10,525 nt of DNA from a virus, in UHGV virus genome UHGV-0185920; one strand, given 5' to 3'. How positions within the stretch are numbered: position 1 is the stretch's first letter; the number at the start of each line of letters is the position of its first letter. The notes beneath the pieces are model-generated. The model was not told where the DNA came from, did not search any database, and worked only from the letters and a program-made list of their open reading frames with translations. Shown one piece after another: positions 7,647 to 9,741 of this stretch. The translations under genes and the position numbers were made by a program.

Positions 7647-7943
7647 ATGCCAGCGCCTCTGTATGGTGCGGATGACCCGCGCCGCTGTTCCGGCAATTCC
7701 GTATCGGAGGTGCTGGATAAATTCAGAAAAAACTACGATCGGATAATGTCGCTACCGCAGGAAACGAAAGAGGAAAAGGAATTTCGCCACTGTATATGGC
7801 TTGCAGAGAAAGAAGAACGAGAGCGAATTTACCAGACATCAATCCGACCATTCCGCAAAGCCACATATACCCACTTCCCTGAATATATCGACCCGCGCCT
7901 GCGTAATTACCGCTCACGCTATGGCGCTATCAGTAATGACTGA
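7647..7943 (+). CDS. Hypothetical early-region protein (98 aa)
   Basis: ATG with AGGAG RBS (7636..7640); co-directional and tightly packed with neighbouring genes; no family recognised. Confidence 0.6.
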
Positions 7944-7953
7944 GGAATTTACC

Positions 7954-8118
7954 ATGAGAGGACTTGCATACAATCCCGGCATTCTTCCGGCAGAAATGAT
8001 TATTCGCCAACGCGTAAAGCCAATGCCATCGAGAGAGGAATTGCTTAAGAGAAATTCTTTTCCATCAGTAAATCAAAACAAATATCTGAATGCGATGTGG
8101 CGGAGTGGGAAGAAATGA
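7954..8118 (+). CDS. Hypothetical small protein (54 aa)
   Basis: ATG 7954 with GAGG 8 nt upstream; its stop overlaps the next start (ATGA at 8115..8118). The track reports a longer 105-aa version from 7801 that overlaps the preceding gene; the short form is preferred. Confidence 0.45.
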
Positions 8119-9020
8119 AACAAATGTCACTAATTGAGATGGATGGATTTCTGAAAGGTAAATGCATCCCACGAGATTTAAAGGTTAACGAAACAAACGC
8201 TGAATATCTTGTCCGTAAGTTCGGTGAACTTGAATCAAAACTCAACGAGCAGCGTGAGTATTACGAGGGCGTTATCTCGGATGGGAGTAAGCGTATTGCT
8301 GAACTGGAGAAAAGCGAAGAGCAACTCATCAACGAGCGTGACCATGCTGAGTATGCTTTAGCTGATATGTATTTTGCAGCAACCGGGAACAGGCCGGAAT
8401 GGAGTAACTGTTTCAGTTTTTCAGATGCAGTAGATGCCGTAGTTGACAGAATTGCTGATTTAGAAGTTAAACAGCAATCGCCAGTAGTACCGGAAGAAAA
8501 ACCAATGCCGAACCCTCTTAGCATGTATGCGGTTGATGCGGTTGCAGCTATTGCAGAGGTGAGAGGCTGGAACGCCTGTCGTGCCGCCATGCTTCATGGT
8601 GCCAAACCTGTAAGCCAAACTTACAACTTGCCACAAACGGAGTTTGAACAGGTTGCTGACCTCTACAAAATGCAATTTGATGACGGTCGCACTTGTGCCT
8701 TTCACACTGATGCGCAAAAGGCTGCTCAATGGCTTCAGACGTGCGACGGAAACAGAGTTCAGGAATACGTGAAGCTGGAACGGTTGCAGAATGCGCTGTC
8801 TGGCAACTATCCGGTAACTCCGGATGGTTGGATAAGCTGTAGTGAGCGAATGCCAGATGATGGTCAGCACGTAATTATTTTATGTGATGGCGCATTCGTT
8901 CTTTATGCGCAATATCGAGACGGTGAGTTTTTTGATGTTGTCCGCAATGGTGAGGAGTTCTTCGAAACGCAGAGCCGCAATGTAACCCACTGGATGCCGC
9001 TACCAGAACCGCCGCTCTGA
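8115..9020 (+). CDS. Phage early protein with C-terminal DUF551-like domain (301 aa)
   Basis: C-terminal [22 protein letters not shown] ... [10 protein letters not shown] matches the DUF551 signature common in lambdoid ea/nin-region proteins; N-terminal part predicted coiled-coil. Start at ATG 8115 (GGAG upstream, ATGA coupling) rather than the track GTG at 8097. Confidence 0.8.
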
Positions 9021-9049
9021 TAGCGAATCTTATACATATCTTTTACATC

Positions 9050-9063
9050 AACAATATATTGTT
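9050..9063. promoter_or_regulatory. Perfect 14-bp palindrome AACAATATATTGTT in the promoter region of the zinc-ribbon gene; candidate operator
   Basis: Read directly; located 54 to 67 bp upstream of the ATG at 9117 in an AT-rich intergenic region. Confidence 0.35.
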
Positions 9064-9116
9064 AATTTCCAATCAATGTTACGTTGTCATCTCACTCATG
9101 CTTTGGAGGTAGTGAT

Positions 9117-9296
9117 ATGTCTTGTCCAAAATGCGGTTCTGGAAATATTGCAAAAGAAAAAACAAGGCGTGGATGGTCTGGAGATTATGTGTGCAGTGAT
9201 TGCGGATACAACAACTCTAAAGACGCATTTGGAATGCGCGGTAAAAACGAGTTTAGTAAAAATAATAAAGAACGCGGAAGCAACGAAAAAAGCTAA
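9117..9296 (+). CDS. Small zinc-ribbon protein (CPKCG ... CSDCG), 59 aa, K/E-rich tail
   Basis: ATG 9117 with GGAGG RBS (9105..9109, 7-nt spacer); two CxxC pairs about 20 residues apart. The track ORF from TTG 9084 is a longer alternative. Confidence 0.6.
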   Translation: MSCPKCGSGNIAKEKTRRGWSGDYVCSDCGYNNSKDAFGMRGKNEFSKNNKERGSNEKS

Positions 9297-9361
9297 ATTA
9301 TTTATTCATATATGAAAACAATGTAACCAATATTCGAATTGAAGAACTGAAAGAACACTAA

Positions 9362-9385
9362 GCCGCCTGATGGCGGTTTTTTATT
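9362..9385 (+). terminator. Rho-independent terminator (CCGCC-TGAT-GGCGG stem-loop followed by TTTTTTATT)
   Basis: Read directly; lies between the zinc-ribbon gene and the next gene, immediately before that gene's RBS. Confidence 0.5.
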
Positions 9386-9396
9386 GGAGACAAGAA

Positions 9397-9741
9397 ATGT
9401 CAGATTTGGCTATGAAGATTTTGAAATGGCAAACGACTGGCGATGTCGGCATCAGTAGCGCAACTCTTGCCTCAATCGCATGTGGACTGAAAAAGAATAT
9501 CTATGGTCATCACTTCGGCGCTCCACATGACGCAGCCGATTTCCGACGATGCGTTGCACTTGTTGAGCAGATTCCAGAAATCAGAGATTCATTCGACAAG
9601 GTTGCAAAGCGCGTTCCGGCATTCAAAGGCATCCTCAACGAATGGGATTCTCTCGTTGCTCTGTTGAAGTCTGAAATGAAGATACACGGAAACAAAGCAC
9701 CAGAGACTTACAGAAGAATCAGAGAACTACGCAAGGACTAA
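9397..9741 (+). CDS. Hypothetical protein (114 aa)
   Basis: ATG 9397 with GGAGA RBS 6 nt upstream; the track ORF from 9370 adds 9 residues that overlap the terminator; no family recognised. Confidence 0.6.
   Translation: MSDLAMKILKWQTTGDVGISSATLASIACGLKKNIYGHHFGAPHDAADFRRCVALVEQIPEIRDSFDKVAKRVPAFKGILNEWDSLVALLKSEMKIHGNKAPETYRRIRELRKD

Follow-up and report, generated by a model that had tools for sequence, protein, structure and literature searches.

The closest described counterpart of the genes considered here is the stretch from abc2 to xis in the PL (early-left) operon of phage P22, its 'ea' region (NC_002371 / L06296), for which the annotated order is abc2-orf56-...-eaA-eaG-terminator-eaC-xis. 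In phage lambda and in Shiga toxin (Stx) phages, the equivalent slot between the recombination genes and xis, the exo-xis region, holds ea22, ea8.5, orf55 and orf60a/61/63, and further relatives are present in the phages HK620 (hka genes), HK022 and 434. The Rac prophage of Escherichia coli K-12, a defective lambdoid prophage, carries the series recE-recT-ralR(lar)-rcbA-xisR. The stretch beside abc2 has been treated in published work as a hotspot of counter-defense genes; examples are abc1, which triggers an abortive system encoded by P4, and an OLD inhibitor related to EaE. Here we report on five genes located at positions 7,647 to 9,741 of a 10,525-nucleotide stretch of viral DNA (UHGV virus genome UHGV-0185920), the whole of which is referred to as the window. 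The region has its counterparts in the P22 'ea' region and the lambda exo-xis region. Very probably, it forms the portion of the PL operon distal to the promoter in a P22/HK620-like lambdoid prophage, built from interchangeable lambdoid modules and left stranded by a recent deletion; its genes, on this reading, are not retained cargo.

The six-frame list of open reading frames (ORFs) and the sequence itself bear out the basic anatomy given in an earlier note on this DNA: five co-directional ORFs on the plus strand that encode proteins of 98, 54, 301, 59 and 114 amino acids (aa), with an ATGA at 8115-8118 that is shared by the stop codon of the 54-aa gene and the start codon of the 301-aa gene. 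Ribosome-binding sites described there as good are found at four of the starts, which are preceded by Shine-Dalgarno-like motifs (AGGAG, GAGGA, GGAGG, GGAG) at a distance of 7-8 nt; the motif in front of the 301-aa gene is weaker than the other four. With P22, the locus has in common the order and orientation of abc2, a 54-56-aa DUF2737 ORF (orf56), a gene whose product ends in DUF551 as EaA does, a 96-bp spacer, eaG, a t'I-type hairpin and the excision genes. It departs from P22 in that a single mosaic 301-aa gene stands where eaE, orf45, eaF, eaD and eaI lie between orf56 and eaA, and in that an HK022-type 114-aa gene, instead of eaC with the paI/aI antisense RNA unit, follows the terminator. 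Moreover, abc1 and erf of P22 are absent; an intact sister prophage in E. coli MS 16-3 has a Rad52-like recombinase, a single-strand-binding protein and a 3'-5' exonuclease instead.

The likeness to lambda includes two DNA segments within the equivalent slot. Window positions 8233-8319 (87 bp) are 92% identical to lambda ea22 and encode the Ea22 coiled-coil peptide in common, and positions 9323-9386 (64 bp) are 97% identical to lambda 29103-29166, which comprise the end of orf55 and the hairpin behind it; homologs of orf60a/61/63 and ea8.5, in contrast, are absent. The HK620, HK022 and 434 group provides close matches of two further genes, as the DUF2737 protein is 100% identical to that encoded by hkaI and the 114-aa ORF is 95-97% identical to its counterparts in HK022 and 434. 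These are complete and viable phages, whereas the segment studied here is left over in a prophage that suffered a deletion and has an IS1-interrupted integrase gene. The DNA comparison shows mosaic joints with lambda, with P22 and with HK022.

Two E. coli chromosomes place the segment in its genomic context. That of strain TUM10008 holds a locus that is 100% identical to the whole window, flanked by thrS and an acyltransferase gene on one side and by espL1 and yniD on the other. The minus-strand parts of this P22-like remnant consist of the tailspike gene, an Arc-family gene, a truncated coat gene, the scaffold gene and a terminase fragment; it also holds the five studied genes on the plus strand and an integrase gene split by IS1A. 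The intact sister prophage of E. coli MS 16-3 resides at the same chromosomal site and contains a LexA-family repressor, cro, cII, replication genes, ral, kil, the Rad52-like recombinase, ssb and the exonuclease (182 aa), after which come the same five genes, a gene for a 76-aa helix-turn-helix (HTH) protein and, on the opposite strand, a 402-aa integrase. Within the five genes the two loci are 99.6-99.7% identical. Homology with the MS 16-3 prophage starts at window position 7170, which marks a deletion junction where a terminase fragment is joined to the exonuclease gene. Measured against MS 16-3, PL and everything between PL and the terminase gene have been lost, and the deletion took the immunity, replication and lysis regions and part of the structural regions. 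A 301-bp probe spanning the junction, searched against 5,426 complete E. coli genomes, found it in just one of them. The deletion is strain-specific and recent. The comparison with MS 16-3 upholds the placement of the cluster, proposed in the earlier note, as a lambdoid or P22-like early-left accessory region left behind by a deletion.

That the five genes survive intact while the core of the prophage was deleted is also correct as a description, but it carries no selective meaning. Because the deletion is both recent and strain-specific, as attested by its occurrence in one of 5,426 genomes and by the near identity to MS 16-3, the intact reading frames say nothing on selection: the genes are intact through the recency of the decay and not as selectively retained cargo. 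A contrary view would be that they were domesticated, that is, kept by selection for a benefit to the host, be it stress tolerance of the type associated with the DUF551 protein YfdS or phage exclusion. It draws on the contrast between five intact frames and truncated neighboring genes, and on the finding that deletion of the DUF551-containing yfdS renders E. coli K-12 sensitive to H2O2 (PMC4776307; PMC10834534). We consider domestication very unlikely, however, since the junction is confined to a single complete genome and the near identity to an intact prophage has left no time for selection to show; in addition, the promoter signal does not rise above chance, and a PADLOC scan of all window proteins yielded noise only and no defense match.

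The protein encoded by the first gene (7647-7943, plus strand; 98 aa) is, by sequence, Abc2 (anti-RecBCD protein 2), a studied anti-RecBCD protein with a solved structure. It matches PF11043 over residues 1-98 (profile positions 1-97; 4.3e-62, 206.8 bits against a cut-off of 25), phrog_656 ('abc2 anti-RecBCD'; 7.8e-57) and the PDB entry 8B1T, 'Anti-RecBCD protein 2' (1.4e-56). Its identity to P22 Abc2 amounts to 93%, with 64 of the 66 N-terminal residues the same and Pro68 kept. These are the functionally relevant parts of the P22 protein: in the RecBCD complex solved by cryo-electron microscopy (PDB 8B1T), residues 3-66 form the RecC-binding helical part, and Pro68 sits in the active site of the host protein PpiB (PMC9836394). 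Abc2 is thought to make RecBCD load the phage recombinase (PMC9836394) and, according to Murphy and Lewis (1993) as cited in the same study, Abc2 alone abolishes RecBCD-dependent recombination when it is expressed. The action on RecBCD was shown for the P22 ortholog, and at 93% identity the protein encoded here should act likewise.

Directly downstream of abc2, in the position taken by orf56 in P22 and by hkaI in HK620, lies the gene for the 54-aa DUF2737 protein (7954-8118, plus strand). The match to PF10930 is strong (2.6e-31, 107.7 bits against a cut-off of 25), the protein was assigned to phrog_1117, and its identity to the P22 orf56 product is 75%. Its core peptide is present in 702 phage records, virulent Salmonella siphoviruses among them. 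Pairwise ratios of non-synonymous to synonymous substitution rates (dN/dS) are 0.11 for abc2 and 0.08 for the DUF2737 gene, each compared with P22, and 0.12 for the 114-aa gene compared with HK022. Because the values lie between 0.08 and 0.12, these three families are, to judge from their substitution patterns, protein-coding and under purifying selection.

The third gene (8115-9020, plus strand) encodes a mosaic Ead/Ea22-type protein with a DUF551 C-terminus, the length of 301 aa referring to a start at the ATG, which is likelier than a GTG located six codons upstream. Residues 238-300 match PF04448 (DUF551; 1.4e-21, 77.5 bits against a cut-off of 22), and all of the invariant columns of this domain (W239, C242, R245, P247, W293, P297) are present within the signature W-I-S-C-S-E-R-M-P ... 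H-W-M-P-L-P-E-P-P. With P22 EaA the protein shares 45% identity across its final 130 residues. An alignment of 40 relatives resolves into swappable N-terminal, coiled-coil, linker, middle and DUF551 modules. The AlphaFold2 (AF2) model is confident only for approximately residues 240-300, which fold into a five-stranded DUF551 domain; elsewhere it is poor (predicted local distance difference test score of 57) and contains, at low confidence, a long helix at residues 26-90. Foldseek matches of this model to Tudor domains (E about 0.03, template modelling score about 0.1-0.2) were not significant and were not used. Ea22 is known as a tetrameric, pro-lysogenic protein of lambda and Stx phages with a variable C-terminal domain (PMC10834534, PMC7093339), and variants that end in DUF551, referred to as 'Ea22 V2', occur in Stx phages (PMC10834534). 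The 301-aa protein is similar both to P22 EaA and to this 'Ea22 V2' type.

This gene is also where a quite different reading of the cluster, that its ORFs are decaying pseudogenes or annotation artefacts, finds what it can be built on. The Prokaryotic Genome Annotation Pipeline (PGAP) splits the 301-aa frame into an 18-aa pseudogene ('YfdS family, incomplete') and a 189-aa DUF551 coding sequence, and a 136-aa ORF on the minus strand at 8460-8870, antisense to the gene, has a PHROG family match of its own (phrog_23547, E = 7e-48). However, the 301-aa frame is unbroken and its ATG is coupled to the upstream stop codon; the protein is present in the intact MS 16-3 prophage with one amino-acid difference, its exact copy occurs on more than 140 contigs with full-length annotation in other records, and three of the other genes show purifying selection. 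The split made by PGAP is an annotation choice and not a lesion, and phrog_23547 most likely collects wrong-strand gene calls over a very common DUF551/Ead gene. We therefore give the pseudogene reading hardly any credence.

The fourth gene, eaG (9117-9296, plus strand), encodes a 59-aa C4 zinc-ribbon protein with a polar basic tail. It was assigned to phrog_2945 and is 83% identical to P22 EaG over 59/59 aa (93% at the DNA level), and an 'Eag protein' is recorded on 201 contigs. The cysteines C3, C6, C26 and C29 are kept in most aligned homologs; two divergent sequences are without the second CxxC pair. P22 EaG has an extra cysteine at position 27. Around eaG the GC content drops to 31-35%, and the gene is flanked as in P22, by an EaA-type gene on one side and the t'I hairpin on the other. 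The AT-rich 96-bp spacer in front of it (9021-9116) is 95% identical to the eaA-eaG spacer of P22.

The earlier note had credited the zinc-ribbon gene with its own promoter-like region and terminator. In view of the AT-rich spacer and the hairpin downstream, this can be extended to the proposal that eaG is an autonomous moron which expresses a Lar-like restriction-alleviation zinc ribbon from the prophage. The spacer indeed contains a weak -35/-10-like match (9031-9060), in fact the only promoter-like matches in 7000-10200, two overlapping ones that agree with 9 of 12 consensus positions. Yet two matches are fewer than the 4.6 +/- 2.1 obtained in shuffled sequences, so that a promoter of eaG is no better supported than by chance. 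A perfect 14-bp palindrome, AACAATATATTGTT, lies at 9050-9063 and overlaps the promoter-like matches; its P22 version, AGCAATCTATTGTT, is imperfect, and we rejected the palindrome as an operator on this ground.

With respect to the protein, the moron proposal can point to sub-threshold matches to the Lar models PF14354 and TIGR03655, to the presence of Lar/RalR in the equivalent recT-xis slot of Rac, and to a CPxCG...CxxC layout like that of RalR/Lar, with which EaG shares 28% identity over 54 aa. The scores nevertheless all fall below the curated cut-offs (PF14354, 21.1 versus 28.6 bits; TIGR03655, 17.1 versus 39.6 bits). In 9 of 11 members of the EaG family the PF14354 match is likewise sub-threshold, the best E being 2.9e-5; the unrelated zinc ribbons HVO_2753 and TFIIB score as well on EaG as Lar does, and the hhalign probability for EaG and RalR/Lar of Rac is 12%. 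Membership of EaG in the Lar family is accordingly not supported. Rac resembles the locus in having a small zinc-ribbon-type protein between its recombination genes and xis, and differs from it in that EaG is not demonstrably homologous to RalR/Lar and in that no RalA-like antisense RNA was found: a scan of the whole window with Rfam gave zero family matches.

The terminator, in turn, is real. A hairpin followed by a T-run is located at 9360-9386 on the plus strand (free energy of -12.9 kcal/mol; z -2.8 against shuffles), but it is not specific to eaG. P22 records give this hairpin two labels: t'I, because of its identity with lambda, and aI RNA terminator, the aI RNA being antisense. Because it is common to lambda, where the preceding gene is a different one (orf55), it is best regarded as a conserved operon-level feature 5' of the excision genes and not as eaG's own. 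In front of it stands what is left of the lambda orf55 C-terminus (NVTNIRIEELKEH*; 9320-9361, plus strand), recognized from the lambda comparison and non-coding here. Some EaG homologs in the databases run in frame into this remnant, which is a mosaic joint. With a promoter match below chance expectation, a palindrome that P22 does not conserve, and a terminator that belongs to the operon, an autonomous eaG moron appears improbable to us, albeit somewhat less so than the two alternatives discussed before.

The last of the five genes (9397-9741, plus strand; 114 aa from an internal ATG) is an ORF known from upstream of xis, where its 95-97% identical counterparts reside not only in HK022 and 434 but also in mEp043 and several Stx phages. 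The protein matches phrog_1229 over residues 1-114 (7e-52), as do 58 of 58 sampled distant relatives, and a profile of the family collects 2,879 clusters (50% identity) at E <= 1e-3 and 646 at E <= 1e-10. Relatives occur in phages of Escherichia, Salmonella, Vibrio, Arthrobacter, Clavibacter and others. Invariant in the family are S20, the motif P43-x-D45-x-x-D48-x-x-R51-C52 and W83. The structural model is confident and all-helical. No Pfam or NCBIfam match was obtained, the 58 diverse relatives included, and PDB sequence searches with single proteins and with the 58-member profile matched only Abc2. Foldseek against BFVD returned uncharacterized viral proteins only, and a Sylvanvirus protein (from a giant-virus record) was a weaker structural match.

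Two proposals about this family deserve mention, each of them tentative and, in our estimate, unlikely. According to the first, it would be a large family of phage early proteins with an apparently new helical fold whose members serve as new helicase/nuclease modulators or as counter-defense factors; if true, its role could be addressed in the E. coli/lambdoid system, given the position near abc2-type counter-defense hotspots. The second would have the 114-aa protein assist phage DNA replication or recombination, as the partner or regulator of a helicase or exonuclease, and not serve in host takeover. Eight individual look-ups of the neighborhoods of distant family members gave mixed contexts. 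Distant members stand directly 5' of superfamily 2 (SF2) helicase or P-loop NTPase genes (metagenome contig L008, Vibrio phage 1.201.B), one follows a recombination exonuclease gene directly on its 3' side in coliphage Bas82, and one is found inside a helicase/primase-polymerase module (L009); here and in HK022 the gene is situated between the recombination genes and xis. Other neighborhoods, however, are without a helicase or nuclease partner, and the protein is unrelated in sequence to the families of Pfam, NCBIfam and the PDB, so that an accessory role in replication or recombination is a weak lead only. A Pfam scan of long proteins with the 114-aa domain turned up one fusion, the 558-aa protein P0165 of contig L007 (Logan SRR30503383), in which this domain is C-terminal to a CCA-adding/poly(A) polymerase head with its RNA-binding domain and to an HD domain; the fusion comes from a single contig of 1.9 kb and is too thin to interpret.

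The data lend themselves to the following view of the region as a part of the PL operon. In the intact phage, PL would drive transcription of the five genes soon after infection or induction, and an antiterminator of the N/gp24 type would be expected, by comparison with lambda and P22, to let RNA polymerase pass the hairpin at 9360-9386 and go on to transcribe the 114-aa gene and the excision genes. Abc2 would redirect RecBCD, as its P22 ortholog does. The 301-aa protein is most likely a coiled-coil oligomer akin to Ea22 that displays a swapped-in DUF551 beta domain to a partner. In the remnant, the deletion at 7170 removed PL together with the repressor, the antiterminator and the recombinase. 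Because PL is lost, the abc2, DUF2737 and DUF551 genes are probably silent or weakly transcribed, as is also to be expected because Abc2 alone abolishes RecBCD-dependent recombination; any read-through would presumably end at the hairpin without reaching the 114-aa gene.

Several observations weigh against this view or parts of it. The pairwise dN/dS of eaG against P22 is 0.66 and thus much above that of its neighbors, although the count is small, at 18 substitutions that are mostly located in the C-terminal tail. In contrast to Ea22 of lambda and Stx phages, the 301-aa protein does not reach the threshold of PF13935 (Ead_Ea22), which it matches only at residues 33-65 (5.5e-4, 21 versus 27 bits), and it ends in ...LPEPPL without the basic-Gly-Glu ('+GE') tripeptide reported for the C-terminus of Ea22 proteins (PMC7093339). 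Its Ea22-like behavior is suggested by analogy, and that the first three genes are silent in the remnant is something we infer. Finally, a function is demonstrated for only one of the five proteins: DUF2737, EaG and the 114-aa protein are conserved non-structural early accessory proteins whose functional role is undemonstrated, as is that of the 301-aa protein.

As a discovery, the cluster is small, since it is the ordinary accessory end of a P22/HK620-like early-left operon. It was already known, in that all five proteins are represented by identical or near-identical sequences in public records of well-known phages. The notion of five uncharacterized genes, with which the earlier note began, must be corrected for abc2, and the other four have names or catalog entries from classical phages; that these four have no demonstrated function stands. 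Homology searches and structure prediction, which had been suggested as a check, identified Abc2, DUF2737, Ea22/DUF551, EaG and phrog_1229, and left the 114-aa family, which has no Pfam, NCBIfam or PDB relative, as the only puzzle of any size. The terminator is a lambda/P22 t'I-type hairpin, and intactness of the genes reflects a recent, strain-specific deletion and not selective retention. A modest residual interest attaches to phrog_1229, a widespread family that has no Pfam entry, has a confident structural model, and for whose study E. coli is a convenient host.

The genes that border the cluster show further traces of decay. Upstream of abc2, the gene for an Rv2179c-like 3'-5' exonuclease (7133-7630, plus strand) is truncated at its 5' end: PF16473 is matched at 1.2e-56 but only from profile position 27, and in comparison with the intact 182-aa protein of MS 16-3 junk takes the place of the first 31 aa, the DLET motif among them. 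The exonuclease fused to the terminase fragment is almost certainly inactive. Downstream of the 114-aa gene, the 76-aa HTH protein (9863-10093, plus strand; weak HTH matches, phrog_4745) is a putative excisionase or directionality factor. Its gene is convergent with the integrase gene, whose 3' end it overlaps; the same arrangement exists in MS 16-3 and is unlike the co-directional xis-int genes of lambda and P22. What remains of the tyrosine integrase gene in the window is a 3' fragment (10051-10407, minus strand), recognized from the PGAP annotation of the identical locus, in which IS1A separates this fragment from the remainder of the gene; the intact MS 16-3 integrase measures 402 aa. At the other side of the window (4600-5646 and 3314-4508), a P22-type coat gene that lacks its C-terminus according to PGAP abuts the region of the Arc-family gene, which suggests that the head-completion and ejection genes were lost in a second internal deletion.

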